The notes beneath the pieces were generated by a model. That model saw only the letters and a list, made by a program, of their open reading frames with translations, ran no database searches and had not been told where the DNA came from. 20,000 nt of DNA from an uncultured virus (IMG/VR IMGVR_UViG_3300042865_001090). Its lineage: Duplodnaviria; Heunggongvirae; Uroviricota; Caudoviricetes. The stretch lies in IMG/VR virus record IMGVR_UViG_3300042865_001090. The stretch is one strand, 5' to 3'. The position numbers were made by a program, and so were the translations under genes. This document shows positions 113 to 17,990 of this stretch, one piece after another; positions within the stretch are counted from its first letter, which is position 1, and the number at the start of each line of letters is the position of its first letter.

Positions 113-484
113 ATGGCTTCAGATTTTTTAAGTCACCTTGCTCGATTGCGCGACAGCGCCATAGTGAATCACGACATGAAGTCTGTCAATAAATATAATG
201 ATGCAATCGACGACTTTTTGGAACTTAGCAAAAAACAAGAAAATTCGATTGCTCCTCGAACGGCAAAAAAGAAGTCATCGCGCTTCACTGTTAGCAAGCG
301 GAGACCAAACGTCAGCCGTGAATCCTCTTCTATGGGTTATGCTAAACCTATACATAATCAACGGATTTTAAGTAAATACAACTGCATGGTTACCGGAGAA
401 AAGCGCATGAATCCATGCGCTGGCTGTAGTAACGTACAAGGTTGTATTTCCAATTCAATGCAGTACAAGGAGCACCAAGCATGA
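113..484 (+). CDS. Hypothetical protein (123 aa), basic central region and C-terminal 4-Cys cluster (C-x10-C-x2-C-x5-C)
   Basis: ORF track. Its TGA overlaps the next ATG (ATGA 481-484). Contains CMVTGEKRMNPCAGCSNVQGC. Confidence 0.75.
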   Translation: MASDFLSHLARLRDSAIVNHDMKSVNKYNDAIDDFLELSKKQENSIAPRTAKKKSSRFTVSKRRPNVSRESSSMGYAKPIHNQRILSKYNCMVTGEKRMNPCAGCSNVQGCISNSMQYKEHQA

Positions 485-1986
485 GCGAAAAAGCAGCAGT
501 CGTAAAGTTGAATGCTGACGGCGAAGTTGTTAGTTGCGCCAAAGGCCTCGGCTCGGATGAGTGTGGATACACGCCAGGCGCAAAAGTTTGTGGAAAGTGC
601 GGAGCAATGGCTGTCTCTGTAAAGAAGAAAGAAGATGTTGACGTTAAGGCCGCCAAGAAAAACATGCTAAACATGGCCGCAATGGATTCTGACCTGGATG
701 AAGAAATGTCCATGGAAGATGAAGAAAAAGATGACGACATGGAAGACATGGAGCTCGTTGATGACGAAGAGGACATGGATGAAGAGGACATGGACGACGA
801 AGACGACGAAGACATGGCCGCAGATGACGACGAAGAAGACGAAGACATGGAAGACCTTGACGGCAAAATGTATGATGATGAATCAGTAGACGAAATGTTC
901 GTCCGTCGTTCTGCGCCAAAGAAGAAAAAGAAAGGCGCCATGATGATGGGGCCAGACGCTGAAGTAGAACTAGACGAAGACGAAAAAGACATGGATGGCA
1001 TGTACTCAGATGAATCTTCAGTTCGCAAAAAGATGCGCAGACGCAGACTCGGAACAATGGGGTACAAGTCAGCAGATTTTGACGACAACGCATTCGTTTG
1101 TGGATTCGACCGCAAGGTCTACCCAGGCGGCGCAAATGTTTGCGATAGCTGCCCAGGCGGTTGTGTTTCCGAAAAGGGAATGCCAGCCCTGATTGAAATT
1201 GAAGGCATGGCAGAAGACATGTTTAGAGGCAAGGTTCTCGATTCTGGATATTCAGATGAAGCAGACCTGTTTATAGTTGATGTTGAGAGAAAAGACGGAA
1301 AGCCAGTCGAGGTGTTCTTCGATGGTTCAACCGGCGAAGTCATGGGCTGGCACATGCTCACTCAGGATGTCGTGCAGGTTAAGTCTGCGCTGCAAAACAA
1401 GGTGATGATTAGCTTTGGTGAAGCAGCAGATATTGCTGTTAAATCGGTTGAAGGTGACATCATTGCTGTTGAACCAGATGTTTTTGAGGGATTTGATGTT
1501 TACGCAGTAGAAATCGAGGGCCTCAATGGCAAGTCGTATGACGTGTTTGTTGGGCTCGATGGTGAAGTGCTTGGATACGATGAGTATACGCAGGAAGAAG
1601 CTTCAGAGATTGAAGCCGAAGCGGCGGAAATTGCGCTGAAGCGTGCCTACTCGGAAGATTCGCGCACATCAATGGCTCAAGCCGGGCAGGCACTTGCAGA
1701 TGGTTCATTCCCAATCAAGGATGAAGCAGACTTGAAGAATGCAATCCAGGCTTACGGTCGCGCAAAAGACAAGACAGCAGCAAAAGCTCATATCATGAAG
1801 AGAGCTGTTGACCTTGGCATGGAAGAAATGATTCCTTTGAGCTGGGTCTCCAAGGAAGATATGGACAAAGCCAAAAAGGACTACGCTGCTGAAGAGAAGT
1901 CAGAAGTGACGGATTTCTTGTCAAACTTGATGGAATTCGAAATGCTTTCCATCGAAGAGGAAATCAACGAACCAAAACCTGAATAG
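481..1986 (+). CDS. Multidomain acidic protein (501 aa from ATG 481): N-terminal 4-Cys motif, D/E/M-rich tract, second 4-Cys motif, two PepSY-like domains, C-terminal DUF6582-like helical domain; possibly head-assembly related
   Basis: AAGGAG at 467-472 and the ATGA overlap favour start 481 over the track's 442. PepSY-like patterns at ~1192-1347 (...FIVDVERKDGKPVEVFFDGSTGEVMG) and ~1408-1575 (ISFGEAADIA...YAVEIEGLNGKSYDVFVGLDGEVLG). ALADGSFPIKDEADLKNAIQAYGRAKDKTAAKAHIMKRA resembles a phage DUF6582-type domain (from memory). Confidence 0.8.
   Translation: MSEKAAVVKLNADGEVVSCAKGLGSDECGYTPGAKVCGKCGAMAVSVKKKEDVDVKAAKKNMLNMAAMDSDLDEEMSMEDEEKDDDMEDMELVDDEEDMDEEDMDDEDDEDMAADDDEEDEDMEDLDGKMYDDESVDEMFVRRSAPKKKKKGAMMMGPDAEVELDEDEKDMDGMYSDESSVRKKMRRRRLGTMGYKSADFDDNAFVCGFDRKVYPGGANVCDSCPGGCVSEKGMPALIEIEGMAEDMFRGKVLDSGYSDEADLFIVDVERKDGKPVEVFFDGSTGEVMGWHMLTQDVVQVKSALQNKVMISFGEAADIAVKSVEGDIIAVEPDVFEGFDVYAVEIEGLNGKSYDVFVGLDGEVLGYDEYTQEEASEIEAEAAEIALKRAYSEDSRTSMAQAGQALADGSFPIKDEADLKNAIQAYGRAKDKTAAKAHIMKRAVDLGMEEMIPLSWVSKEDMDKAKKDYAAEEKSEVTDFLSNLMEFEMLSIEEEINEPKPE
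685..1014 (+). repeat. Low-complexity acidic coding tract with about 7 copies of GACATGG (Asp-Met) among GAA/GAC/GAT codons
   Basis: Seen directly: EDMDEEDMDDEDDEDMAADDDEEDEDMEDLD, interrupted by a KKKKK patch. Confidence 0.8.
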
Positions 1987-2056: not shown

Positions 2057-5000
2057 GTGGCTAATTCATATTCCAATTTCGCAGAACGCAGGATAAACAA
2101 CCTGTCCAAGAATGGCGAATTAGAAATAGGTTTCATTCCCAAAATAGAGACCAAGGCCGAAAAACCAGAAGTAAATAAGCCTCCAGTAAAATATTCAAAC
2201 CCGTATGAAGAATACATAAAGACATGGGAGCCGGGGGACGTAATACCGCTTGTTCCACCAGGCAAGAGAATGCATTTTTGCACTTTCAACCCAAATATGC
2301 TGGATACAGATTCAACATTTTTTAGGTCAACACACAAACATTCCTCTCCGACGAAATTTAAATCGGGTGAACTGAATGACATCGAGTACAAGGTCCTTGG
2401 AAGGAAACTAAAGGACAGCCTTGACTCGCTACTGCGAAGAGCAGCCAAAACAAGAGGCTTATGGGTTGACGATAAAAACAAGCTTCGCTGCCCTCCGGGA
2501 ACACCAGCTGCAAACCAATTTACAGACATAACTGGCTCTAACTGCTTCATACCGTCACCAAGAACTGCCGCACAAAGTGGAGCTCGTGCAGTGCGTAGAG
2601 CAACAGCTGGCGCAACCCAGATGTCAACCCAGGTTGGCGGAAGAGTTGCTAGTGGATTCGATGCAGCTAGAGCAAACGCTGAACAAATTAGAGAACTTGG
2701 TTTTGAAAGAGTTCAAGAAGCAATGGGGTACGGTGGCAGAATTGCGCCCACTCCACAAATGGTTAGCGATACAGTCTCGGGAGCCATGAGGGCTACGAGG
2801 TTTGGTCTCATACCAAACCCTTCAGCGAGAACTGGAGGCAAGCAGCGTGGAGCACCGAAGGGCGTCGGCAACAATGTGTGGCAGCTTGGATTAAAAGAAC
2901 AAGTCTGGAGAGGCAGAAGAGCCACCGAACTTGCTCGCTCCACAAGGGATAGATTTAATAACCCAAACCGACCAGACGGACTAAGACTCCCACCGAGTCA
3001 GAACTTCCCGGCCGGTAGACCAATCGGCGACATAAGCCAAAAGGCTCAATTCGTTTCCGCAATGGCCGAACTATTTCCAAACGTTCCACAAGCAGAAATA
3101 GAAGAAATGTTTGACCAAGCAATTCCAATGAGCTTGAGCAGGATGGAAAGGTCAAAACTGAAGGCATCTTTGATTCAATACTGGTACTCCTGGATGGAAA
3201 ATGCAATTGCAAATCCAGAGCAGGCAAAATGGGTTACCTCTTTCGCGATAGATACGGAAATGGGGTCAGCGTTCGAAGTTAGATTTGATGCATTTGCTCC
3301 CTCGCCTTCAACGGGAGGAAGAAGAATTAGCCAAGCAGCATCAAACGCGGCTCAGGGAAGAACCGCAGAACAGGGTGGACTTCAGTTCTCCCTTGTTATG
3401 AATCCATGGGAAATGTGGTCACAGGTAAATCGCTCGGGCTTTGACAGAAATGGTCGAGCAAATGGAGTCGCTGATTCTGTTGAGGGTGACATGCACTATT
3501 TGGCCAACCATGAGTGGGGCCACGTTGCGCACTTCTCGAGTGTTATGGAGACACTTGGATTCCAAACGCAAAATCTTCAGAGATATCCGCTTGCACAAAC
3601 ACTCGTAAAACCACAGCAGGGTGGTCCCCAGTGGCAAAGACAGAAACAAGTCAATGCATGGATGATTGACTTTAGGCAAGCTGCGAATCCAACAGGAAAC
3701 AGAAGTATTCAGCTGTTAATCGACTCAGCAAACAATCTAAGCAGAAGGCAATATATTCGCTCTGGAAGTTGGGGAGGTTCGACCGGGTACACAAGGCAAG
3801 ACCTGGAGACCGATTTAAACAATTTTCATAATGCGCTAGCTGAGGCAATTGAAAACAACATCACCGATGATGCTGACGACCAGGAGTTGATGAGACAGTT
3901 TTCTGGTGGTGTTTATGCGGCAACATCAAACATAGAAGCCCGCGCAGAGTTCTTCGCATCCCGAAGATTGTTTGGAGACCCGGTACTAACAGGTGGGCAA
4001 ACAGGAATCCCATCCACGGTTGATGAGTTCGCGCGAACAATGGCTTCAGCCCAGGGAGCCACACGGACGCAGGCACAATACCGTTCCCAGATGGACGACA
4101 TTGGACAGAATGTTTTTAGTGTTCCTGGAAACGCATGGAATATTAGTGGTCGCATGGCTGGTTCTGGATTGCCACAACAAAGGCCAACACTTAAAACACA
4201 GGCCGTCAGAAGAGCTGTAGACCAAAACTATCCACGAAGCAATAGAAATAGGAGTTCCTCGGCTATTACTGGAGCAATGAGGTCATCCTCATTACAGCAG
4301 AGAACCACTTCTTCTCGTGACTGGAAAAATCAAGACACGATAAGTTCAATAAACACAAACAGGCCATTCACCGAAGAGCGTCAATCGCTGCCGGGAATGC
4401 TGCAATCAGCATTGGGAACTCAGCAATCATCTACACCAATCGTTGGAAGGATGTCCCCGCTGGTGCCAACAACGGTCACGGGTGTTAGGAATCGTTTCGA
4501 TGGCAGCAGGTCTGGTGATGTCGACATCAAGGTCCACGAAATAAACGGCGAAAAAATAGTATTTGATAATCCCGACGCAATATCAATCGATGACTCATCA
4601 ATAAAAATTATTCCTAAAAACCCATTTGAGATAACCGGAAAATCCAGAACCAGTAAGGAAGGTCGCGAATATTCAGAGAAGTGGCTCAATGCCCATCTAG
4701 GCAAAGGAGACATGGATTCGAATGATGTCGACGCCCTTCTGTATCGAGCATCACGCGGTGACACGGAGGCAGCAAAGGAATTCGATGGTTTAGCGGAAAA
4801 AGGAAGCAAGCGAGTCTCTGAAGCAGAAGGAAAATTGTATGAACCCATCGAACTTGATGAATACCAGGAAAGAACAATAACCCGAGCTGGTCTTGAGGAT
4901 TTGAGCCTAGATGACTTGTATGTTGTACATGAAACAAGTTACGAGCCAGAAATTGATGAAAATGGAGACATAAGCATCTCTCCTCGTTCTAACTTTGAGG

Positions 5001-8000
5001 AAACAACTGAATCCGGAAAGAAGGTAAGGGTTCCTCGCCACACGATTCACTTCGCATTAAATCACCTTGTTGGTGGACATATATTTAGGCAGCGCTCAGA
5101 AAAAGATACGACTATCTTAATAGCGCCACTGTCTCAGGTGCTAAGAGACAATCCAGATTCACTCGACAATCTATATACGCTTGATACTGTTCTTACACCA
5201 AAACCTGGTGAGGGGATAAAGCTCAAATCAGGAAGCTTCCGAAGACTCACTGGTACACCAGACAAAGAAGCAACAGAAGAGGCTGTTCGTCAGCAGCTAA
5301 ACGAAATGGGTGCAACAAAGATTTTTAAAGCAGAATCAGCAGAGTCTTCAACTGACGCACAGGATTTAGCAGTCGGCAAAATAGCCAGGCAGCTGAGAAC
5401 CCAATCGGGATTGCACGCAAACATCCCAAGCGGACAGGTCGAGCAGTATTTGATTCGCCAGGCTGGAAGTGGTGGTAGCGCTGAAGTGACGCTTCCGCCT
5501 AGTTGGGTGGCCGGAATGAGCAAAAACCATCGCCAAAGACTTGGTGATTCAAACTTCTGGAGCGATGCGAAACCAGCCCCAATCACCGGCTTTATGAGAA
5601 GCGGCTCGACCCCACAAGCAGGACAGAGCAGAATCAAGAAAAACAAAGACGGTGTGCCTCAGTACCCACGGACGCCAACCTACGGTCCAATGCTCGGTGA
5701 AACAGAAAATATTTTTGCTGGAGTTAATTCTTGGGAAGAATTTAAACAGAGATATAATGACCAGGAAATAGTCTTTCTTGATTATGAAACAACTGGTTTA
5801 GTATTCGACAAATATGGTCGCGCTACGGAAAACGGAAATCCGGTAGAAATAGGCGCAATAAAAGTAAAAAACGGACAAGTAATAGACAGATTCAACACAT
5901 TTGTCAATCCGGGAAAGCCTCTGCAGCAATGGTCTAAAGACAACTTGCGCGACGCAGACGGAAACCCCCTCACTGACCAATACCTACAGGGGGCTGAGTC
6001 TTTGGAGTCTGGGCACAAAAAACTTGTTGAATTTGCTGGACCAAATGCAATTATGGGTGTTCAAAACGCCGCATACGACAAGAACGTACTTGAAGACACT
6101 CTCCGTGAAGCGGGAATTGAATGGCAAGCAAGGGGCTGGATTGACCTCAAAGATATGGCCGGCATGACACTCCCAAGGTACACAGATGAAAATCCGGATG
6201 GACCACATAAGACAAATAAAGATGGAACAAAATCACCATCCAATGGACTTGCGGACATAACAAGATACCTCGGGGTCCCTCTTGGCAAAGAGCATCATAG
6301 AGCAGACAAAGACGCTGAAGCAACAGCGGAATCAATGCGTCTTTTGATTGATGGTGCAATTGAAAAGAATTGGTCAAAAGACGCTCTGGATAGAGCCAAG
6401 CGAAGTGCGTACGTCAAAAAAACACAAGACGATTTTGACTCAGATGTAAAAGAATGGGAGTCCGAGCTTGCAAAGTACTTAGGTGATGGAGTGTCGGGAA
6501 AGATGTCGTCATCACCTGCTTTGCGCTCTGCTCCACAGTTTGGCAGAAGACAGTCTCGTGAGTTCTATAGCTCGGTACCAAACAGTAAATTATGGAGACC
6601 GGAAACTCTCGAGCAAAGCGAACCATCACGAATTGCGAAAAGACAAGAAATAATCAAAGACATCAAAGGATTCATAGAGTCTGGCGATGGCGACGCAAAA
6701 TACATGTCTGCAATGAATGGACTTGACCCAGAATTTGCTAACTACATGCGCAATACCGAAGACCGCGAGATTCTGGCAGACCTTCGTCAGGCAGCAGTTG
6801 AATTTCATGCTGGCATCGACCAGAGACCACGTCTAAACGTAAACACTGCAGAACTTTCGAGCTTAATGGAAAATGGGCTACGAAGAGACGATTCAGGCAA
6901 ACCGCGACGTCTGTCAGAGAGAGTAAAAGCCTACGAAGCAGACATTGGAATTTCTCCAGACCTTCCCGACGCAGAACGCCCAATAACTGGATACATGGTG
7001 CATTCCGATGGCGACTTCGCTGAACAAGAGGCTTCATTTAGGGAGTTTTCTAATAAAGTTGATGTCAATTCTCCACGTTATAAGTTTGACCTTTTTAAGT
7101 CAAGTAACGAAAATCGCAACAATGGTTTCAATTCTATTTTTGGTGATGCTGAAATAATTCTAAAACCAGAAACCGGCCAAAGGACAGCTTACGGCAACGG
7201 TGACGCCCTTGATAATCACATATTTCCTGTCCTGGCAAACTCAACAGATTCTGACGAAATAGGTCGCGCACTCATTGACCCTAACGGAAGATTTGACGAA
7301 CGTGAATCAAATTCCATCGAACTTCTCTATGGAAAATTTAAAAATGATTTCAATGCCTACAGAAAAGATAACGGTCAAACTCGTCCACGGATAAGCGGAG
7401 CATGGGGAAATAGGGACGCCCTGATTATGGGCGGAATAGAGCCGAGTGATATCGAAGAGGTGAGGGTTCCGTTTAATTCTCTAGATATTACAAACTCAAC
7501 CACGCCGGAAGAATTTGCAAAAAAACCAAGAGAACTTAAGTACTTACCCGTTACTGAGTATGTAGACGAAGGCCCTGCGATTGCTTCCTCCGGCGCAGGA
7601 GCACCACCGCCGCCACCACCGCCAGATGACCCTGACAACAACATGACAGACGAAGAAATTTCTAAAATTCAAGAAAAAATGAAACGGAGTTTTGCGGCCA
7701 CAAAAGAAGAGCAAAAAATAATCGAAGATATTTTGTCTGGGTTAGAGCCAATTAATGCGATACCCAAAAATTTAGCCATACGAATTGACAACGTTAACGA
7801 ATACAGGAAAATCTCAGACGACTTTAGAAATCTAAGAAGAATTGAAGAAGCCGAAAGACTTCAGAGATTAGCGAAAGCAAGAGGTTTTAATCTTGCAGTA
7901 ACCAATGACTACGGATTGGACGTATTTGATGGGCGCTCATTCTCAAGTAAGGCTCCCAAGTCAAAAACATCAAAAGAAGTTATTGAGGCAAAAATAGACA

Positions 8001-8137
8001 AGCAGATAGAAGAACTTGTTGAGTCAATGCGTCAGGCAAAGTTCAAAAACATTAAAAATATTTCTGACTCCAGAAGCAGACTGGAAAAGATACAGGAAGA
8101 GTTTGATAAACTCACAGACGGCAGGAATGAAAAGTGA
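2057..8137 (+). CDS. Giant multi-enzyme (polyvalent-type) protein, 2026 aa: RCP..FT..C motif, HEXXH zincin metallopeptidase, His-rich unknown domain, DEDDh 3'-5' exonuclease, DUF3626-like domain, polyproline linker, coiled-coil tail
   Basis: 6.1-kb uninterrupted ORF with SD. HEWGH (3509-3523) plus YAATSNIEARAEFF (3914-3955). DYETTG, QNAAYD and HHRADKD exonuclease motifs. ERPITGYM...FGDAEIILK...RTAYGNGD...IMGGIEPSDIEEV. Confidence 0.9.
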   Translation: MANSYSNFAERRINNLSKNGELEIGFIPKIETKAEKPEVNKPPVKYSNPYEEYIKTWEPGDVIPLVPPGKRMHFCTFNPNMLDTDSTFFRSTHKHSSPTKFKSGELNDIEYKVLGRKLKDSLDSLLRRAAKTRGLWVDDKNKLRCPPGTPAANQFTDITGSNCFIPSPRTAAQSGARAVRRATAGATQMSTQVGGRVASGFDAARANAEQIRELGFERVQEAMGYGGRIAPTPQMVSDTVSGAMRATRFGLIPNPSARTGGKQRGAPKGVGNNVWQLGLKEQVWRGRRATELARSTRDRFNNPNRPDGLRLPPSQNFPAGRPIGDISQKAQFVSAMAELFPNVPQAEIEEMFDQAIPMSLSRMERSKLKASLIQYWYSWMENAIANPEQAKWVTSFAIDTEMGSAFEVRFDAFAPSPSTGGRRISQAASNAAQGRTAEQGGLQFSLVMNPWEMWSQVNRSGFDRNGRANGVADSVEGDMHYLANHEWGHVAHFSSVMETLGFQTQNLQRYPLAQTLVKPQQGGPQWQRQKQVNAWMIDFRQAANPTGNRSIQLLIDSANNLSRRQYIRSGSWGGSTGYTRQDLETDLNNFHNALAEAIENNITDDADDQELMRQFSGGVYAATSNIEARAEFFASRRLFGDPVLTGGQTGIPSTVDEFARTMASAQGATRTQAQYRSQMDDIGQNVFSVPGNAWNISGRMAGSGLPQQRPTLKTQAVRRAVDQNYPRSNRNRSSSAITGAMRSSSLQQRTTSSRDWKNQDTISSINTNRPFTEERQSLPGMLQSALGTQQSSTPIVGRMSPLVPTTVTGVRNRFDGSRSGDVDIKVHEINGEKIVFDNPDAISIDDSSIKIIPKNPFEITGKSRTSKEGREYSEKWLNAHLGKGDMDSNDVDALLYRASRGDTEAAKEFDGLAEKGSKRVSEAEGKLYEPIELDEYQERTITRAGLEDLSLDDLYVVHETSYEPEIDENGDISISPRSNFEETTESGKKVRVPRHTIHFALNHLVGGHIFRQRSEKDTTILIAPLSQVLRDNPDSLDNLYTLDTVLTPKPGEGIKLKSGSFRRLTGTPDKEATEEAVRQQLNEMGATKIFKAESAESSTDAQDLAVGKIARQLRTQSGLHANIPSGQVEQYLIRQAGSGGSAEVTLPPSWVAGMSKNHRQRLGDSNFWSDAKPAPITGFMRSGSTPQAGQSRIKKNKDGVPQYPRTPTYGPMLGETENIFAGVNSWEEFKQRYNDQEIVFLDYETTGLVFDKYGRATENGNPVEIGAIKVKNGQVIDRFNTFVNPGKPLQQWSKDNLRDADGNPLTDQYLQGAESLESGHKKLVEFAGPNAIMGVQNAAYDKNVLEDTLREAGIEWQARGWIDLKDMAGMTLPRYTDENPDGPHKTNKDGTKSPSNGLADITRYLGVPLGKEHHRADKDAEATAESMRLLIDGAIEKNWSKDALDRAKRSAYVKKTQDDFDSDVKEWESELAKYLGDGVSGKMSSSPALRSAPQFGRRQSREFYSSVPNSKLWRPETLEQSEPSRIAKRQEIIKDIKGFIESGDGDAKYMSAMNGLDPEFANYMRNTEDREILADLRQAAVEFHAGIDQRPRLNVNTAELSSLMENGLRRDDSGKPRRLSERVKAYEADIGISPDLPDAERPITGYMVHSDGDFAEQEASFREFSNKVDVNSPRYKFDLFKSSNENRNNGFNSIFGDAEIILKPETGQRTAYGNGDALDNHIFPVLANSTDSDEIGRALIDPNGRFDERESNSIELLYGKFKNDFNAYRKDNGQTRPRISGAWGNRDALIMGGIEPSDIEEVRVPFNSLDITNSTTPEEFAKKPRELKYLPVTEYVDEGPAIASSGAGAPPPPPPPDDPDNNMTDEEISKIQEKMKRSFAATKEEQKIIEDILSGLEPINAIPKNLAIRIDNVNEYRKISDDFRNLRRIEEAERLQRLAKARGFNLAVTNDYGLDVFDGRSFSSKAPKSKTSKEVIEAKIDKQIEELVESMRQAKFKNIKNISDSRSRLEKIQEEFDKLTDGRNEK
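3491..3960 (+). other. Zincin metallopeptidase catalytic core within the 2026-aa protein
   Basis: HEWGH zinc-binding motif plus a downstream YA-x5-E-x2-AE-F third-ligand helix, the pattern typical of anthrax-lethal-factor-like and phage metallopeptidase domains. Confidence 0.75.
5768..6350 (+). other. DEDDh (DnaQ/Pol III epsilon-like) 3'-5' exonuclease domain within the 2026-aa protein
   Basis: ExoI IVFLDYETTGL (D 5780, E 5786), VEIGAIKVKNGQVIDRFNTFVNP, ExoII QNAAYD (D 6077), ExoIII HRADKDA (H 6296, D 6311). All five catalytic residues are present. Confidence 0.92.
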
Positions 8138-8478
8138 AAAAGTACCTAATCGCCAAAGTCGGAAAAACTGGGAATCTCTATTTTGTTCCAGATGGCGACA
8201 GGTATAACGGCCTGTTTGTTGACGGCAAGAGATTATCCCCAGTTCCGCTGTTTTCTTTTATTGAACGACGTAATGACATCTTCCCAGTTATGAAGACCAA
8301 CAGACAGAAACGTTTCTGGAAGCTAGACTTCAGGGATAGTGACTGGTCCACTAGGCACAACACGGAAAACCCCGGAAAGATATCAAAGAATCCTTATAAT
8401 AAAAAAGCTTTAGATTTTTACGACCAACTAGAGGAAATCCAGCCAGTCCGCAAGCCAGGATTTCGGAAATCTAGTTGA
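8134..8478 (+). CDS. Hypothetical protein (114 aa), basic and aromatic-rich
   Basis: GTG start overlaps the upstream TGA (GTGA 8134-8137). Fills the gap between larger genes. Confidence 0.7.
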   Translation: MKKYLIAKVGKTGNLYFVPDGDRYNGLFVDGKRLSPVPLFSFIERRNDIFPVMKTNRQKRFWKLDFRDSDWSTRHNTENPGKISKNPYNKKALDFYDQLEEIQPVRKPGFRKSS

Positions 8479-8502
8479 CATGTATTTAAATCACAGTATT
8501 TT
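8475..8502 (+). promoter_or_regulatory. Candidate sigma70-type promoter
   Basis: Perfect TTGACA (8475-8480), 16-nt spacer, TATTTT (8497-8502). A TACAAT also lies at 8506-8511. Located in an AT-rich intergenic gap upstream of SD AGGAG (8541-8545). Confidence 0.45.
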
Positions 8503-8550
8503 GCGTACAATTAAATTCAGGGGTTTATTCACTGGTTGCAAGGAGACCAA

Positions 8551-9195
8551 ATGAGTCTGGTCAACAAAATTATGAATGGCGATGTCCAAATTGCCGTCGA
8601 CACAAAAGCAGCAGGACCTGCTGGCGCCATAATACCTCAAGAAAATATTACCGGTGATGTACTCAGGGGGTATGGACCGCGCAGGGGCAATCTTGAGCGC
8701 CTCCTTCGTTACTGGAGACCAATTATGCGCAAGCCTGGCGGGTTCAGGAGATGCCGAGTAATTCTTGCCGACCACCCAGAGCTTTACCCACTTGAAAGAA
8801 TATGCGCCTGGTTGCATCACGAAACAACTGGTCTGTGGCCAAATGAAGGGTGCCACCACCCAGGAATGAAAAACTGTCGCAAGAAGATGCGCGGGGTTGT
8901 TCGTGGCTCACTCTACTCTGACCAGGAATTCAACAATAGAATGCGCAAACTGACATCGCGCAGTGGCAGGAAGGCTGTAGAATTTACGGGTATACGCTCG
9001 GTTGATGAGCCCTTTTCCCCAGTCATCACGCAGGATGATTGGACCCATGCAGTGAAAGTATTACAAGATTTCATAGACATGGAACCGGACTTCGTTAAGT
9101 ACGTGGAAGACGAAAAAAACTGGGAACACGTCGATGGGTATGTTATCGATAAAAACGAATTGGAGTCGCTAGATGCGAACAATATTGAGTTCTGA
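8551..9195 (+). CDS. Phage-type hypothetical protein (214 aa from ATG 8551) with a Cys/His putative metal-binding domain
   Basis: AGGAGA at 8541-8546 supports ATG 8551 rather than TTG 8536. GNLERLLRYW...PGGFRRC...CAWLHHETTGLWP resembles a small domain I recall from actinobacteriophage head-region proteins. Confidence 0.8.
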   Translation: MSLVNKIMNGDVQIAVDTKAAGPAGAIIPQENITGDVLRGYGPRRGNLERLLRYWRPIMRKPGGFRRCRVILADHPELYPLERICAWLHHETTGLWPNEGCHHPGMKNCRKKMRGVVRGSLYSDQEFNNRMRKLTSRSGRKAVEFTGIRSVDEPFSPVITQDDWTHAVKVLQDFIDMEPDFVKYVEDEKNWEHVDGYVIDKNELESLDANNIEF

Positions 9196-11224
9196 TTGCT
9201 GCCCGTCCCAGGAGATTGTAAAAGTTAGACATATTTCTCCGTCTTTCGCACTATCTAGAACTAACCTTTTTACAGCGCCAATTTATTCTGTCAACGAAAG
9301 AAAATCAATTATTGATTTCAAATGCGCAATGCAGCGCAGAGGCGTAAAAAGTGCTTACGAAATAAAAGTCGGAGCGACTGGCTCGGACAGCAGAATTCTT
9401 CAATCTCTCCAGGGACTTGGTTCTGCCGTTACTCCGGGAAACTTTTCCAACGTGCGAAGTCCTGTTAGGTCACGAATTTACTCAGCTCTCACCCCGGGTG
9501 GTGGTCGAGGAGTTCCTGGTGGATTTGGCGCACTCAAGCCAGAGCGTGGATATAGATGTCCAGAAGGGTATCAATTCGGTGGAAGATTTACTGACTCACG
9601 TTTTTCTACATGTGGAAAACAACTATTCGACCTTCCTGGAATCATAGGCGCAACAATCGCCTCTGTTTTGCGTGGCTCTCGTCGTAGCCCATCCTTCCAG
9701 GATGTCGGTGGCACACGTGTTAAGCCAGTGTCTGTGGCTGGTGACGTAATCCAGTCGCGCGCGCCACAAATTCCAAAAGTTACTGGTGCTAACAGACAGC
9801 GCAGAAATCGCTCCGTCGATGACATAGTCGGACAGATGTCGCAGGTAAATGAAGCCTACATGAGAATGGTGCGGCGCGACGGCTTCATCTTGGAGCCGGT
9901 AGTTTCTCCTGCAGTTCTTAGGACAATCCCCGACAACAGAGATATGGAAGGCGCAACATTCCTGATGAATGCTTTGACGTCGGATTCAATTGGTGGAGAA
10001 GAACTTGGAATGCTTTCGAATACCGGCATTGAAAAACTATCCTATGTCCTATCTGGAGGTTCAACTGTTTCCATCGGGAAAGCTCGCCCGCTAACAGTTG
10101 GAGAACGACGCAAGCTTGGTAGAACTGTGGCCACGGCGGAGAAGCTGCGTGCCAATGATGACCCGGTTCAAAAATTAAAATTCATCGCAGAGGAAATGGG
10201 CGATGGAATATCTTATGAAGAAGAGTTTAAAGGAATAAAAAACCCGAATGAAATCATTAAAGTCAACCTCCCAGCAGGTGCTGGCAAGCGAACAATGCGC
10301 AGGTGGCATTATGAGACTTTCTATCGAAAGAAAAAGAAGTCAAAGCAGTCCGCTCGCTCCACAGAGCTAGAAGCAATTCCCGAAGACGATAAAATCAAAG
10401 ACCTTGCTTCTGCGGTCCGTCACCTTAATAATGGTGGTTCGATTGAGAATATTTCATCGAATGTTCGGTCGGAGGCTGTCAGTCGTAGCGCAATGTACAA
10501 GACTGGAAAAATACGAAACGGTGTATTGATTCACGAGCGTGCCGATGGACAAACGGTGTTTGAAATAACACCTGATGAGAACTTTGAACATCTGGGTGCC
10601 GCACTGGCATCAGAACTACAGCGCTCAATGGGTCTTATTGCGCCAAAGGTTCGTTTGGCTGGTGCTGGAAAAAAGCGCAACTATATGCTTGGAGAAGCTC
10701 AGGATGCAGAAATGTTTGGCGTTCAAGATAGGACAATGGACATTGCTGACCTCCCCTCGGAGGACGTTGTCGGAATTCTAATGTCCGACTATCTCACCGA
10801 TACCAGGGATAGAAACCCTTCCACGATTGCGCCAATACGCGTCGGTGGCAGAATGCGTGCAGTTGCTTCTTTGAATGGAAGTGCTGGTCTCTCGGGTATG
10901 ACCTCGACGGAAATACGCGGAAGACGACAAATGCAAGTAAACGATTTCTTCAAGAAAAAGCAGCAGAGAATATACGCTGAATATTTTGAAAAACTTCAGG
11001 CCCAGCAGCGCAAGAGGGCGTTAATGCTATTTGATAAGCTGCTCGAACAAGCAGGAGAATTTGATTTTAAGCGATTTAGACAAATGCTCTCAATAGATGG
11101 ACAGCTTTCTGAAGCAGAATTACTACATCTTGGGATTGTCGAAAAAATATTTGAACAGCGTGTCAACATACTTAAATCATCATCTGGAAATTTCAAGAAA
11201 CTGATTGGCTTATCGATTAGATGA
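9173..11224 (+). CDS. 683-aa protein: N-terminal RCP..FT..C motif and C-terminal degenerate HipA/PI3K-PI4K-like kinase fold
   Basis: GGAG at 9162-9165. 23-nt overlap with the upstream gene. ALASELQRSMGLIAPKVRL and DYLTDTRDRNPSTI...AVASLNG follow the HipA-like layout. Confidence 0.85.
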   Translation: MRTILSSDCCPSQEIVKVRHISPSFALSRTNLFTAPIYSVNERKSIIDFKCAMQRRGVKSAYEIKVGATGSDSRILQSLQGLGSAVTPGNFSNVRSPVRSRIYSALTPGGGRGVPGGFGALKPERGYRCPEGYQFGGRFTDSRFSTCGKQLFDLPGIIGATIASVLRGSRRSPSFQDVGGTRVKPVSVAGDVIQSRAPQIPKVTGANRQRRNRSVDDIVGQMSQVNEAYMRMVRRDGFILEPVVSPAVLRTIPDNRDMEGATFLMNALTSDSIGGEELGMLSNTGIEKLSYVLSGGSTVSIGKARPLTVGERRKLGRTVATAEKLRANDDPVQKLKFIAEEMGDGISYEEEFKGIKNPNEIIKVNLPAGAGKRTMRRWHYETFYRKKKKSKQSARSTELEAIPEDDKIKDLASAVRHLNNGGSIENISSNVRSEAVSRSAMYKTGKIRNGVLIHERADGQTVFEITPDENFEHLGAALASELQRSMGLIAPKVRLAGAGKKRNYMLGEAQDAEMFGVQDRTMDIADLPSEDVVGILMSDYLTDTRDRNPSTIAPIRVGGRMRAVASLNGSAGLSGMTSTEIRGRRQMQVNDFFKKKQQRIYAEYFEKLQAQQRKRALMLFDKLLEQAGEFDFKRFRQMLSIDGQLSEAELLHLGIVEKIFEQRVNILKSSSGNFKKLIGLSIR

Positions 11225-14200
11225 AAAAAGCAACGGTAATTAGAGACAAGCTCTCTGGTCAGCCTTTTGCAATACTTCTTCCATCCGATGGAAAGAAACC
11301 AGTTGCATTCGGCTCATCAGGCCAAGGGAGACTATGGGCCGACTGGGCGATGTCGTCCAGTAGCGGAGCGCTCGACAATCTCGATGTGTCTCTTACCGTC
11401 GAGAAAGATGTTGAACTAACCGATGAATTTATAACCTCACTCGAGAGCACTTTTGAAATTGCCGACTTAAACGAACTTAAATTCACCATCTCCAAAAAGG
11501 CGTTGCTGGTCATCGAAAAAGTAAAATCCCTTGCCGGAGAGGAGCCTGCAAAATATGAGCAGATGAACGAGGATAACGAGGAGGAACTCGTAGACAGATG
11601 GCCAGTAGTGGATGCTGCGATTGCGACCATCGATGTTGCCTATAAACAAAATGCTCTTGACTACAAGGCAAAGGCTTTCAACCTTGATTCAAAACGCAGC
11701 TCAATGCTGCTGCAAGTCAAGGGCGTAAGAGCCATGTGGGACCCAAACATGCCTGGCGGGGGTGGATGGAGATGCCCTGACGAAACGGTAAATGGTGGCC
11801 AGTTCACCAACAGACTTGGTCGTGGGTGCACATTTGGGGCAATACGCAGAATAGGCAGGGCATTGATGACTGCCTCCCTGAAGGACATTGCAAAGGGTTT
11901 TGATGATGATGAGGTGGCCTTTCCGAGCGTCTACAGGGCTGGAAAGAAACTAGACGAGGTTGGAGAAAAACTCAAAGAAAGAACAGGGAAAAAATACAGC
12001 CGCAGAGCGATGAGGAGGGCTGACCAGCTCAAAAAAGAACAAGCTCGTCAGATGCTAAAAGAATCTCGCCCAACGTTTAGACAAAGATATGAATCGCTTG
12101 GGCCAACAGTAAGTAGACGCAACAGGGTTCTAATAGCCGCCTCTCAAACCGCCAGAGACGTTGCCGATGACCAGGCAACCAGAGGTTTTGTTTCTGAAGC
12201 CAGGAGACGCACTCGCAGACAAGGCATCCCCACAAGAAAAACACCAACAAATGATACTGAAACCTTCTCAAATGACGACACCATAACTGGCGCCATGAGC
12301 CCAGAGCGAAGGGCTCAGATTGCGGAAAAACTGAGAACAACAGCACAAGACATTTACGAAGGTCGACGTTTTGCAAGACGACAAAAAAAATCGGAACGAA
12401 AACAGACAAAAAACTCACCACAACTCAATGAAAACGAACTAGAGCGCAGCAACAGGATTGCTACAAAGCAAATTGATTCAATACTTGGCGTACTCAAGCA
12501 AAGAGACTCGGGTAGAGAGTATCTTGCCGGAGTTGTGAATTCAGCGGTGAGCAATTTGAATAATTGGGCTAAAGAAAAAACTGATGGATTAGGGTTTCCT
12601 AACAGGGTTTATACAGAAGCCGACTTCGACGATAACGATGTACAGATAATCGAACGGGCTCTGCGTGAGCTAAAAGAAAACCCAGACAAGCCATTTGCGG
12701 ACCAACAGTGGGGTAGATTTGCGCAATTATTCAAGCTTTGGGGAACGCACAACTGGGCGGTAAATCGCTCTATGCCACTGCAAAATAACGACGGAAATGT
12801 AATTTCAGATTATATTCCAAGATTAAAAAAACCTTTTGGGCAAACAGATGTGTTTCCGGAGCTATGGGTAGATGGTCGTTCGGTCAATGAGTTTGGATTG
12901 CGCACGCCTGAGGAGTTGACCGAATTAAATAACGCCCACACTACTCTTGGTTTTCTCGACATTGACACAAAAATTCCAGACAAAGACCAGACACTCTCCA
13001 TGCTCGGCGGATTTTACTCTGACGAAGAAGGTGATGTTTTCGGTGGCTACTACAAGGAGTTTATCGCCGATGAATCAAAATTTTCGGTTTCGGCGAGAGA
13101 AGTTTTGGCAAATGGGCTAAAGCGCAATCATGAAATAGACTTGCGTAAGTTTTTACATAATAAATTTTATGGCTCAACCGCGTGGAACTCTCCAAAGAAA
13201 ACCACAAACAGGGAAACTGAGATAACGCCATCACAGTCCATTGTTGAGCGTTTCATGCGTGGACTAAGTCCTTCGCGTGACAAAGAACAACGAACTCTTG
13301 AAAGAGAACTCAGAGGAAAGACGCCTCGCAGTACAACCGAATTGCGCGAAAGAATTGCTCGACGACAGAGACGGCGAGCAAAGGAGCAAGCTGGTGAGCT
13401 GGTCACGTTTGAGGATTATGCAGACTACGAGCAGCTCAAAATAAACAGACCAGAACTTGTTGGCGGAAAGCGAAAGCTTAATGAATTTACAGAACCAACA
13501 CCTCCGAATAAAACCAGAATGCGTGCGCGCGAACGCTGGAGGACCAAACCATCCGAAGAGGGTCGCCCAAAGGTCGACATCATCCTGCGAGACATGGAGC
13601 CACACCTATCCTCAAGCGGAGATGTAAATGAAAACACCATCAAAGGTCTTGATGACCTAGATAGATTTTTTCAAGCGGAAGTAAATCATGCCGCAATCGC
13701 CAGACTGCGAGAGTCCGCCCTGACTCCATACGACACAGAAAATCAGGATGAACTCAAAAAGATTTACGGAGACTGGCTGCGCTCATTCAACGACTCAGAT
13801 GCGGACCCGCAGCCGGGTTCCCCATCAAACATGGGACTCACTGAGCAGACATCGATATCGTGGGTTGTTCCCGGTGAACCAGGGTTTCTCACCAGGAATC
13901 TGGATGAAGCATGGGAATTTGCAACTTCAAAATCAGAAGAAGATAGCAATTTCGACCCACGCACGCTAGACGCGGTAGGGGACAGAATTGTTCTCCGAGC
14001 AAATCAATTCAACGGACGTCCTGTGGTTTACGTAGAAGATACGGAGGCGCAGGTTGCTCACCTTATGACTCCGGATGGAAGACACCTGATGTCGATTGTG
14101 ACATCGCGGGACGACTCAGACGAGCCAGGAAAAGTTAGATTTATCAGCGGCTCCGCGGCCTTGGAGCAAATCGCAAGAACAAAAATGCGTCCAACAGTTT

Positions 14201-17200
14201 CGGAACGAATCGCAAAACTAACAGGAAGACAGAGACGCAGAACCGCTTCGTTAAGCAAACCAGCAGAACAAGCAAAAACGAAAAAGAGACTAAATATTGG
14301 TTTCGCCAATGGAGAGCCAGTCGGTTTATTTTTTGGCAAAACAACTACCGGCCGCCGCCTAAACACGCTCTCCCCATTGGCGATGACCGAATCCGAGATG
14401 GCGGAAATAACCAAGTCAATCGAGGAGAATCTAGACATTCTCGAAAACAACCTACGTAGAAGACTTGGCTACCCAGATTTGAATCAGCCAATTTCAACAG
14501 TCGATGCCGCAGCGAGAATTGAAGAAGTACGTAAAACTTCTGGAAGATTTGCAGGAATTCTAGAAACAGACCTACACAACATGATTGCGCTTTCCAGGGC
14601 TCAAGAATCAAACGATATTCTCTACATAAACGACCTAAAACCTGCATTGCGTAACAAAATTTTAGAAAACGTTTCTTCTAGCTATTTGGAAATTGGCTTG
14701 TCGTCCGGGAACAAGAGATATGACGTTGTTCCGCACAAGGGTAGGCCGGCAGCAGCCAAAAAAGTAATAAAACTGCCGCAGCGGGCTCCGCTCATGGTTT
14801 CAGAATCATCCCTTGCTCCGGACCCGTCGACCGTGGGAACTGGTCCTGACTTAACTCCAGGAGTTGGAAATGCCCAGCTAGGCATTGAATACGAGGCGAG
14901 CACTGGTCTCTACAAGGATTCCGTCAGTCTCGAATACATAGAAGACTACTCAAACCTCCCAATTGAGCAAACGGCAATCTACGACCCGGTTCTTCCTGAT
15001 GAGACAAAAACGTACCCACGAGTTTCGATTACCCCAGCTGGGGTATTCCCAACCAGATTCGCAACATTGGCTCCAGAAGTGAATCCGGATGGCGATGCAA
15101 TTAAACCTGGTGACGTTGCCACAAGAACATTCAAGGACGCAATCGAAGCTTACATATCATCTCGGGTGCTAACTGGAAAAGCGAAGACGGACCCAACCGC
15201 AGCGGCAGTCGACAGAATACTTGGAAGAAATGTCGAAGCCGAGTCGCTTAGGGCAAACATACTTGCTCGAGTTGACGCGAGAGGATACAAGCCCACGAAG
15301 ACGAACGGCGACCCTGTCTTTTCTGTGCCTCCGACACTTGGTCAACTCACGTTTGCTGAAATGCAGGCTCTTGCAAATAGCTCAATTGAATCAAATCCAG
15401 ATTCAAGCATGACCGACTTGGGTCTAACATTTTCTTCAGTTAGCCCCAATGCAGAACTTGGTTCGATAGCTGGGAAGAGGGCATTTGAGGATGTTTTCAG
15501 AACTTCCTTCATTGATGGTTTAGGTCTAGATATGGATTTGGAACCATCACTCTTTTATATCCCTTCTGAGTCCGTAAAAGGCAACGACATAAACGAGATG
15601 CTTGTCGACATAAACAGAGCATTGCAGCTTCAAAATGCCGCCGACCTGCTGCGTGCTTCCCTCTCTAGTTCATTCTCGGATGCCAAGGCTGCCAAGCTAC
15701 AACAACTACAAGACGAGGCAAATGACGCATGGCAGCAGGCATCAAAAACTTTATCTACGTCTTACAGGGATGCGGCAACAGCCCGGAACGATGCCCTCGC
15801 GATACTCAGCGATAACCCTAAGAATAAATCTGCCATGAGTATGTATTTACAGATGGGCGCAAGAGCAGAAGCAGCGAAGATGCTTCTTGATAAACACATA
15901 ACATCAAATCAGGTGGCTTTGGACGCAATTACGGCGATGAGGCGTACCGAACTTGAAGGAATGGCAAAATCTAGAAATCAGCGTAAGCGCGCAATGCTCG
16001 ACAGGGTGAAAGCAAGGGCAAATAAAGGAATTCCTCGCAATGAGGGAGCCTTTGACGCAACACCAGAACTCCTTGACCCATGGGGAACGGCGACTCCTCC
16101 GTTACAGCCTCGCTCCCTGGATGACATCCTCGCCGTGAGGGCTCAGCATCGAGCCGAGGGTCTGTATGACGACCCAACTCAAGGTATCGCTCAGCTAGCA
16201 GAAGAACAAATTGATGCACTCGTTGCAATGGATGTCATACAAAAAAAAGCCGCAGATGCTATGCAGGGCAATGGGGATGGTAGCGACCCAAGCAAATTTA
16301 CCGGCATGGAAAATACGCCTATGTACGGTGCGGATTTCGACTACACACAGAGAGCCGACGTGCAGGTTGCTCACTTTTGGTATTACAACGGTTCTAGCAG
16401 CTTGCCGGTGCTGGTCAATCAAGAAGAATTAGACGAAATTTTAACCTCTGTGGATTCTTCGGGTAATAGGCGCGCACTCGTGATAACGCGCGGCGTAAAG
16501 GCGTCAACCGGAACGACAGCGGAAAAAACGGCACAGGAAGAAGAGTGGGTAAACATGGCTCTCCGTGGAGACAGATTTGTCCCGGGAAGCGGCGGAAAGG
16601 CAGAGGGACACGGCGAGTATTGGACATTTAATCCTGGTGGTGGTTGGTCCTCGTATCATGGAGGACACGGCGGAACGATGATTGCCGTAATAACCGACCA
16701 ATCGGAAATATTCCACAAAGACGTTTTTCATGCTTTGTTTTCTGGTAATTCAGGACAACTATACGAAAATCTGTGGGGAATCTATAATGCAATTGGCGCT
16801 CCTGATTCGACTGGAGTCAATGCATCTCACGGACAGCAAGTAGCAAGATTGCTGGCGCCAAACAGTGTTCTCCCAGACGCGAATACCGGACAATTCACCG
16901 CAACTCAACTTGCACAACTTGAAGACGTAGTTCAACAACTAACCGCTATCGGCCCAGACCTCACCGTAAGAAAGTCAAGTAGGTCAAGATTGAAAGCACT
17001 TGATATATCGGATGAATGGGGAGCATTCACCCTGGAGGGACTATACAGAGACAGCCCATTGGGCACTCGCCCTCCACATTCAAGCATGTCACAATCTGCA
17101 TGGGAAGATATGTTTAGGGACGTTAGATTAACACCCGACACACCGGAGAATATCCGAATAATCGAAGAGACAAAAGCATTGCGTCAAAAAGTGAATGCTT

Positions 17201-17610: not shown

Positions 17611-17990
17611 TGAGCAATGCAAACATCGACTCAGACGATGCGAGATATCAGTACAATCGCGGAAAATTTATAGACAAATACTTTGACCTGTTCGAAAACT
17701 TGAATTTTCCACCTATGTTCATCGCAGGTCAAGACCTTGTCGCAGGTGAATATGAAATGGCTCTCAAGGAAGCGTACATTGATGGATTATCAGTACCCAG
17801 AATAGATTTCGTCACCGGTGATGCAAAACCATTTTCCGAATTTGAATCTAAATTCAAAAAAGAAATAGATGAAGCAAAGAAATTTAGAAGTGCAACAAAC
17901 GACAACCACCGATTGGCCTTGGATTTGTATGCAAAAGAAAATGGTGAACTTCACGAGTCGGAGTACATGAAGCAACAAAAGAGACCGTAA
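17610..17990 (+). CDS. Hypothetical protein (126 aa), acidic/aromatic
   Basis: TAATG overlaps at both ends (17608-17612 and 17988-17992). Confidence 0.8.
   Translation: MSNANIDSDDARYQYNRGKFIDKYFDLFENLNFPPMFIAGQDLVAGEYEMALKEAYIDGLSVPRIDFVTGDAKPFSEFESKFKKEIDEAKKFRSATNDNHRLALDLYAKENGELHESEYMKQQKRP

Follow-up and report, generated by a model that had tools for sequence, protein, structure and literature searches.

Three large proteins with a shared cysteine motif

The DNA analysed here (the window) is a 20,000-nucleotide stretch of an uncultured tailed phage, bases 66,228–86,227 of the 160,282-bp virus record IMGVR_UViG_3300042865_001090. Its plus strand encodes three large proteins, which we call A (2057–8137; 2026 amino acids, aa), B (9173–11224; 683 aa) and C (11221–17610; 2129 aa), and each carries one copy of a short, cysteine-bracketed motif, R-C-P-x8-F-T-[DN]-x5-C. 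Translation gave RCPPGTPAANQFTDITGSNC at residue 144 of A (2486–2545), RCPEGYQFGGRFTDSRFSTC at residue 128 of B (9554–9613) and RCPDETVNGGQFTNRLGRGC at residue 184 of C (11770–11829), confirming the three copies, one per large protein, that a first-pass annotation of this DNA had reported. A six-frame scan of the window and of the whole genome found exactly these three matches, and relaxing the spacing to CPx7-9F[TS]x5-7C still left just three places in the genome; the chance expectation, calculated analytically for the residue composition of A, B and C together (4,838 aa), was 2e-8 matches.

Cysteine is otherwise scarce in these proteins, with 3 residues in the 2026 aa of A, 5 in the 683 of B and 2 in the 2129 of C, where both belong to the motif. 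The DNA of the three copies differs at wobble positions, so that selection acts on the peptide and conservation is at the protein level. Together with the chance expectation and the genome-wide scan, this led us to reject chance or a DNA repeat as the origin of the motif. A longer shared paralogous domain was also rejected, as A, B and C align at the motif only: outside it, their flanks are 25–29% identical over 143 aa, with the invariant columns concentrated in the motif.

The first-pass description of the motif's surroundings was borne out in part. The Arg-rich segment said to follow it is present, if modest (11–14% Arg in the next 80 aa, against 7.5–9.2% overall in A, B and C). A Lys-rich leader precedes it in A (11.9% against 5.7% overall) and C (9.3% against 5.5%) and is missing from B. 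Placement near the N-terminus describes A, B and C and fails as a general rule, copies in relatives reaching residue 1939, and the PR..G...GGQF peptides of phage head-associated proteins, to which the annotation likened the motif, were traceable to no family.

The copies in A and B represent two subtypes, I and II, which are defined below. The type I module of A (2390–2548, plus strand) comprises a lead-in, K.LG...AA..G..VD..GK[FLM], the core and a following F; in an alignment of 36 orthologous sequences its invariant positions were G27, A42, D50, R56, C57, P58, G60, P62, A64, N65, F67, T68 and C75. Far downstream, A contains a DEDD/RNase T exonuclease domain (aa 1239–1425; 5771–6331, plus strand), identified by profile matches to Pfam RNase_T (E 4.8e-11) and phrog_192 (E 4.3e-23), with NCBIfam DEDD exonuclease models matching below their cut-offs.

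The type II module of B (9422–9637, plus strand) consists of the islands PG..S..RSP.RS and LTPG, the core and then G..LF..P, and its invariants in a 54-sequence alignment were P34, G35, P43, R45, T53, P54, G55, C75, P76, E77, G78, Q80, G82, G83, R84, F85, C93, G94, L97 and F98. When B was modelled with AlphaFold2 (AF2; 39 orthologs), residues ~200–683 (9770–11221 for aa 200–683) folded confidently, with a predicted local distance difference test score (pLDDT) mostly >80, into a protein-kinase-like fold; a Foldseek search of the Protein Data Bank (PDB) matched it to Helicobacter pylori CtkA (3akl, E 3.5e-5) and HipA (4pu4, E 8.8e-5). Judged from this model, B may be a packaged kinase. Residues 1–200, motif included, had pLDDT 30–50, which places the motif in a low-confidence and probably flexible region. 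Near the N-terminus, B orthologs also keep a CC pair (residues 9–10, 9197–9202; consensus S.CC), which with the two cysteines of the motif makes four in the flexible front part of the protein.

In C the core is followed by a conserved segment, TFGAIRRIGRALM (11770–11868 in all, plus strand), and this third, clade-specific type of copy was confined to the 11 closest loci (L016–L026). Alignment of 18 N-termini showed that more distant C orthologs share the N-terminal region and have a cysteine-free stretch of similar length where the motif sits, ahead of the conserved segment, which indicates that a 20-residue cassette was grafted into an existing linker. By this comparison, the graft into C took place only within the phage's own clade.

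Database searches gave little else. C had no family in Pfam, PHROGs or NCBIfam, and A and B had no Pfam family apart from the RNase_T of A. No profile of Pfam-A, PHROGs v4 or NCBIfam 20 matched residues 100–220 of A, B or C, no PDB sequence matched the motif at E<=10, and the ESM Atlas returned no usable match. None of the three proteins matched Phage_Mu_F in Pfam or PHROGs, and they were thus not classed as MuF-fused cargo.

Conservation, subtypes and confinement to phages

We found 139 relatives of B in a viral contig collection and examined 80 loci. The B ortholog carried the motif in 80 of 80, in proteins that, beyond four nearly identical loci, were 36–53% identical; the central pair was FT in 78 and FA in 2 (L045 and L061), and H replaced R in 4. 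Of the 80, 46 showed the A-type motif (RCPPGTPAANQFTD..GSNCF). The remaining 34 are cut short upstream, with a giant open reading frame (ORF) running off the edge of the locus (26) or <3 kb of upstream sequence present (8), and when such upstream-short records were searched whole, five of five held exactly two matches, one per subtype, and none to a reversed control pattern. In each class, no other island is as strongly conserved as the motif. Most records behind these loci are fragments (ten viral records checked in full were 18–79% complete), and the locus counts are not independent events, as the loci belong to a single broad group of phages.

A search of 1.84 billion representative proteins, made with a profile of 87 motif regions, returned 440 protein clusters at E<=1e-3, 196 of them at E<=1e-10, and the attached domains differed. 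The spacing was exact in all 150 matches listed of the 440; these proteins were 257–4629 aa long and held 1–4 copies each. The consensus of 175 instances was [GN]-[KR]-[FML]-R-C-P-[PE]-G-[TFY]-[PQE]-x-[AG]-[GN]-[QRT]-F-T-[DN]-x-x-[GFL]-[ST]-[NT]-C-[FG], with information of at least 3.9 bits at R1, C2, P3, G5, F12, T13 and C20. The two invariant cysteines lie 18 residues apart and no His is conserved. A zinc ribbon or knuckle, which calls for four ligands, was rejected on these grounds; no zinc-ribbon family was matched in Pfam or NCBIfam, and no PDB entry at E<=10.

Type I, as in A, has T, V, S or A after the glycine; type II, as in B, has Y or F there, mostly GG in mid-motif and then CG..LF..P. 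Both subtypes are old. Each has its own conserved surround of 50–70 residues. Among the 150 listed proteins, 88 had type I only, 38 type II only, 13 type II followed by type I, 9 the reverse order and 1 the order I+II+I; the remaining one, the 2331-aa P0013, had four copies of a further variant, at residues 205, 532, 1417 and 1939, of which three fell outside both subtypes and one scored as type I. A class of 424-aa proteins has type I at ~51 and type II at ~149 and is homologous to residues 55–392 of B (30% identity, E 3e-34), and so corresponds to the front half of B with an added type I module. When viral contigs were searched for relatives of the two-copy and of the four-copy proteins, the former gave 2 distant loci and the latter none. 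In the AF2 model of a two-copy 424-aa relative, pLDDT was 69–76 over type I and 53–81 over type II, with short strands. A predicted complex of the type I (A) and type II (B) modules with zinc scored 0.00, a value obtained without controls that speaks neither for nor against an interaction.

The bodies that bear the motif include RNase_T, 2H phosphoesterase, sigma70_r4/helix-turn-helix (HTH) and kinase-like folds, and mostly unknown domains. A Pfam scan of 20 diverse matches assigned a family to 6 (2H phosphoesterase, sigma70_r4/HTH, RNase_T and DUF5872), and in these 20 none of the families overlapped a motif copy. The motif is thus joined to varying domains and can sit between them. The 2H phosphoesterase of two proteins, P0013 and P0105, lies wholly ahead of the first copy. 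The motif is thus a portable module of ~20 residues, R-C-P-[PE]-G-[TFY]-x-x-[AG]-[GN]-x-F-T-[DN]-x3-[ST]-x-C.

The module was confined to phages. When one genome per species from 185,579 bacterial and archaeal species was scanned with the back-translated pattern RCPxGxxxGGxFT[DN]x5C, there was no in-frame match; the single stretch found was out of frame in its ORF, and therefore a chance match. Searches of 50,697 deposited phage records by tblastn with B, with residues 1–400 of A and with a 60-aa motif region of B found nothing real. A limited literature search with motif strings found no paper, and we found no curated family, solved structure or paper covering the motif. The first-pass annotation had named two outcomes that would count against its proposal, a longer paralogous domain of known function and a motif occurring mainly in non-virion proteins; we observed neither.

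The head module and its acidic elements

Matches to tail sheath, tube and tape-measure-like proteins identify the phage as contractile-tailed. Its head module begins with the terminase, on the minus strand, and continues with a portal protein with a C-terminal Phage_Mu_F domain, an 881-aa protease, a 123-aa ORF, a 514-aa acidic protein and A. After A come 114-aa and 219-aa ORFs, B, C, a 126-aa ORF and a 784-aa protein, then a 3915-aa protein and the major capsid protein (Phage_capsid). It is at this position that tailed phages have their genes for scaffold and head-internal proteins.

The portal gene lies at 61348–63633 of the phage's own genome (L001:15121–17406), with Phage_Mu_F at aa 652–758; a PHROGs check of another lineage (L099) found portal and MuF as separate neighbouring genes. 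The 881-aa protein has an N-terminal Peptidase_S78 prohead protease domain and a DUF6321 region; a limited literature search found no paper on DUF6321. The 784-aa protein starts at 17990 on the plus strand and runs off the window, with DGDGDGKWTNPLTGEDNLPYNP in its N-terminal part (18248–18313). The 3915-aa protein (own genome 86675–98419; L010:2676–14420), encoded just before the capsid gene, matches NUDIX, several sigma70_r4/HTH copies and Zeta_toxin/AAA_33, with DnaJ just under the Pfam cut-off, and by its domains resembles a polyvalent, probably injected effector.

Among cultured phages, the nearest capsid proteins are those of actinobacteriophages (Gordonia phage GMA6, 49% identity), and the 35 kb of GMA6 examined held no in-frame motif. 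The gene right after that of the major capsid protein (own genome 100190–100729; L002:13963–14502) codes for an Asp/Asn beta-hydroxylase-like protein (Asp_Arg_Hydrox, E 2.9e-14). Elsewhere in the genome (~22,500–37,000; L004), glycosyltransferase and methyltransferase genes form a dense block with four 2OG-Fe(II) oxygenase-like genes in tandem, beside tail-fibre genes; this block could modify the virion or the DNA.

A DNA pattern aimed at type II copies outside B orthologs, RCPPG[FY]..GG.FT[DN], found 67 further viral loci. By tblastn with the window's proteins, 64 of them contained the domain of the acidic protein, 62 the protease, 60 the portal, 49 the terminase, 49 MuF and 21 a downstream capsid protein; each of the three that lack the acidic domain starts within the motif ORF, which extends beyond the 5′ end of the locus. 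A B-like core directly followed the type II copy in 36 of the 67. Wherever the contig extends far enough, in the 80-locus and the 67-locus groups alike, the carriers occupy one fixed head module, in the order terminase (minus strand), portal, MuF, S78 protease, acidic protein, motif protein or proteins and major capsid protein. The proposal of a shared addressing module, made in the first-pass annotation, holds up in part, in that the motif is portable, is shared by otherwise unrelated large proteins and belongs to a head-gene block between the prohead protease and the major capsid protein.

The 514-aa acidic protein (442–1986, plus strand), encoded directly before A, is a candidate scaffold or adaptor. 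It has two four-cysteine clusters (aa 31–53 and 220–241) and a D/E run of ~60 residues, and shares 44% identity over 301 aa with the corresponding protein of a second lineage. Alignment defined a conserved domain at aa 216–400 (1087–1641, plus strand), with an invariant C-x13-C-x2-C-x3-C and two PepSY-like repeats, which we refer to as the Cys4/PepSY-like domain and which had no match in deposited phages. The segment that follows it (aa 400–468; 1639–1845, plus strand) is the only part that matched deposited phages, namely the C-terminal parts of actinophage capsid maturation protease ORFs, upstream of the capsid gene. An earlier label of this segment as DUF6321-like was dropped when BLASTP against the DUF6321 region of the protease gave no alignment.

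A search with the acidic domain found 406 viral relatives, of which the best 80 loci were examined. The motif lay downstream in 60 of these; of the other 20, 12 had <1.5 kb of downstream sequence and 8 had no motif in 7–10 kb. Five of those 8 were tested in full (records 35–79% complete), and all five held one type II match further on. A strict rule of one copy of each subtype per genome, which we had considered, was dropped in view of this type II-only subgroup. The Cys4/PepSY-like domain and the motif thus co-occurred in every checkable case and neither is present in cultured relatives, a pattern that would fit a functional link and equally the common descent of one phage group.

In the type II-only subgroup, the giant proteins at the position of A have no cysteine and instead carry a second, acidic motif near the N-terminus, NP.TARDADxD..VLEG.P..N.GRG.PDPTP. 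This D-motif also occurs in distant C orthologs, in the form FDPNAWDGDGDGIVQEGTPFQRP, and at residue 297 of the 3915-aa protein; another form, DGDGDG...DN[VL]PY, is present in the 784-aa protein, as the sequence given above, and in the C-terminal extension of the protease (own genome 65377; L009). Across the fetched loci, L211–L225 among them, the pattern [FN][DN]P.A.DADxD..[VI].EG was found in 48 distinct large ORFs and the cysteine motif in 245, never in the same ORF. By its sequence, the D-motif looks like a calcium-binding-type loop. The C-terminal part of prohead proteases has been reported, in the accessible text of PMC7411985, to carry them into proheads. The presence of the D-motif in the C-terminal extension of the protease would make it a plausible loading element and, by its parallel position, the cysteine motif as well.

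Possible roles of the motif

The motif is conserved, portable and confined to phages, has a fixed position within the head module, and lies in a flexible setting on proteins with diverse attached domains. We propose, with a confidence just short of even, that it is a head-incorporation or anchoring tag for internal and probably ejected cargo, made rigid through its two cysteines. This functional reading rests on gene order, conservation and analogy, from which we infer presence in the virion, docking, the docking partner and the cysteine chemistry. The motif sits in probably flexible Arg/Gly/Ala-rich linkers of large proteins that would be assembled into the head and probably ejected into the host. 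The peptide would close into a small hairpin-like loop via its two cysteines, by a disulfide or a shared metal, the module folding on binding or on this closure, and the loop would dock on a conserved component of the prohead interior and so load or anchor the cargo. The best candidate for that component is the acidic Cys4/PepSY-like protein always encoded just upstream; the portal–MuF crown and the inner face of the capsid are alternative candidates. Unrelated effector domains (exonuclease, kinase-like and others) would thereby be loaded.

The closest known systems, by analogy, are the capsid targeting sequence (CTS) of phage T4 and the long propeptides of the ejection proteins of phage SPN3US. 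The accessible text of PMC9026906 describes the CTS, found on IPI–III and Alt, as a short peptide, transferable between cargo proteins and shared by unrelated ones, which enter the prohead with it and are later ejected into the host. The likeness lies in a modular short peptide common to otherwise unrelated proteins, although loading would here be an inference. Whereas the CTS has ~10 residues at the extreme N-terminus, no cysteine, and is removed by gp21, our motif has 20 residues, is bracketed by cysteines, can be repeated and lies 128–184 residues in (up to 1939 in relatives). Starting at residues 144, 128 and 184 and not at the extreme N-terminus, the motif lacks the position that defines a CTS of T4 type.

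SPN3US gp47, gp53 and gp54 are large head-internal or ejected proteins whose N-terminal leaders of 111–130 residues are proposed to target the prohead and are processed by the prohead protease (accessible text of PMC7411985). That leader length is close to the 127–183 residues that precede the motif in A, B and C; on the other hand, SPN3US has T4-like head genes where the present phages have a portal–MuF/S78 module, and the SPN3US data are experimental whereas ours are computational. We know of no shared cysteine motif in the SPN3US leaders.

Encapsulin cargo-loading peptides are short, conserved, sometimes repeated, lie in disordered stretches and attach cargo to the inside of a shell with the HK97 fold. 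Phage_capsid, the capsid protein of this phage, is of HK97 fold too, and binding of the motif to it is a candidate interaction only; there is no sequence likeness, and encapsulin peptides are not known to contain cysteine. A further comparison is with the polyvalent proteins of phages and conjugative elements, giant multi-domain effectors whose genes lie beside virion genes and for which packaging and injection are predicted; their delivery is linked to fusion with MuF or the portal and to MPTase peptidases (Iyer et al. 2017, accessible text of PMC5512222). The 3915-aa neighbour clearly qualifies as such a protein (Zeta_toxin, NUDIX and sigma70_r4), and A carries a DEDD exonuclease. Such proteins combine two or more effector-type domains in one polypeptide, encoded with virion or transfer genes. 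For A, B and C the virion-gene context is present, with one recognisable domain in A, one in B (the kinase-like fold) and none in C; the difference is that MuF is here fused to the portal and not to cargo. The text of PMC5512222, as far as it was accessible, had no match for 'cysteines'.

Several observations weigh against a cargo tag. No cultured relative was found among the 50,697 deposited phages. The motif is absent from distant C orthologs and from the A-position giants of one subgroup, and is thus not required by every large protein of the module, if these are packaged at all. Copies deep in proteins, such as that at residue 1939 of 2331, and enzyme domains ahead of the first copy fit poorly with a simple N-terminal signal. 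The association with the acidic protein may just reflect the common descent of one phage group. Finally, AF2 gave the motif no confident fold in B, although low pLDDT is no proof of disorder.

Some of the same observations would suit a role in proteolysis, in which the S78 prohead protease docks on or recognises the motif. The motif would then mark sites at which, as the head matures, long cargo polyproteins are split into separate effectors or leaders are taken off, other parts of the proteins doing the targeting. The motif divides multi-copy proteins into segments of ~330–900 aa (P0013: 205, 532, 1417 and 1939), the 2H phosphoesterases of P0013 and P0105 lie entirely before the first copy, and the S78 protease is encoded upstream in 62 of the 67 loci. 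Targeting leaders of T4 and SPN3US are removed by the prohead protease, and those of SPN3US (111–130 aa) are similar in length to the 127–183 aa preceding the motif (accessible texts of PMC9026906 and PMC7411985). We nevertheless consider this role unlikely: known prohead-protease sites span 3–4 residues, as against a 20-residue block with two invariant cysteines, and no similar sequence was apparent by eye in the N-terminal region of the capsid protein or in the protease.

Chemistry at the two cysteines could instead serve after assembly, in a small metal- or redox-dependent element that, for example, clamps the Arg-rich flanks onto packaged DNA, or acts as a redox switch, oxidised in the particle and reduced in the cytoplasm, that releases or unfolds the cargo at ejection. 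Two invariant cysteines in otherwise nearly cysteine-free proteins (many relatives have exactly 2 per copy) and the enrichment of Arg in the 80 aa after the motif agree with this, as would the apparent likeness of RCPxG to half of a CPxCG zinc knuckle. Yet each copy offers two candidate ligands and no conserved His, no solved chain was similar at E<=10, no zinc-ribbon family was matched, and nothing ties the motif to DNA, so that we regard such an element as improbable. A still slimmer chance attaches to the idea that the two subtypes pair with each other, for instance through a metal shared as Cys2+Cys2, a 'hook' tying A to B or joining two parts of one giant protein. It would explain why 23 of the 24 multi-copy proteins among the 150 listed hold both subtypes, in either order, and none repeats one subtype alone, why five of five full records had exactly two matches, one per subtype, and perhaps the conserved N-terminal CC pair of B orthologs; it sits badly with the single type II match in five of five records of another subgroup (35–79% complete), where the A-position giants are free of cysteine, and with the three copies in the window's own clade.

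An extension of the cargo-tag proposal, which we think doubtful, is that the RCP module and the acidic DADxD..EG motif are interchangeable, metal-dependent 'address labels', both read by the acidic Cys4/PepSY-like protein, by which any effector, multi-kilodalton polyproteins included, would be loaded into the capsid for injection. If so, a 20-residue graft into a linker, as in C, would be enough to make a passenger.

To our knowledge, how cargo is chosen for the capsid interior is known in few model phages (T4; SPN3US or phiKZ-like). The 20-residue motif gives a concrete, mutable handle on cargo loading and, if it is truly a loading tag, could serve for filling capsids with proteins of choice; should it be a protease or redox element instead, it would still be a new conserved mini-module of phage head proteins. 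As a tag, it would be a new, sequence-defined and widespread label, found in 440 clusters, all from uncultured phages, and would tie dozens of unknown giant proteins to one fate, as candidate injected effectors of host takeover.

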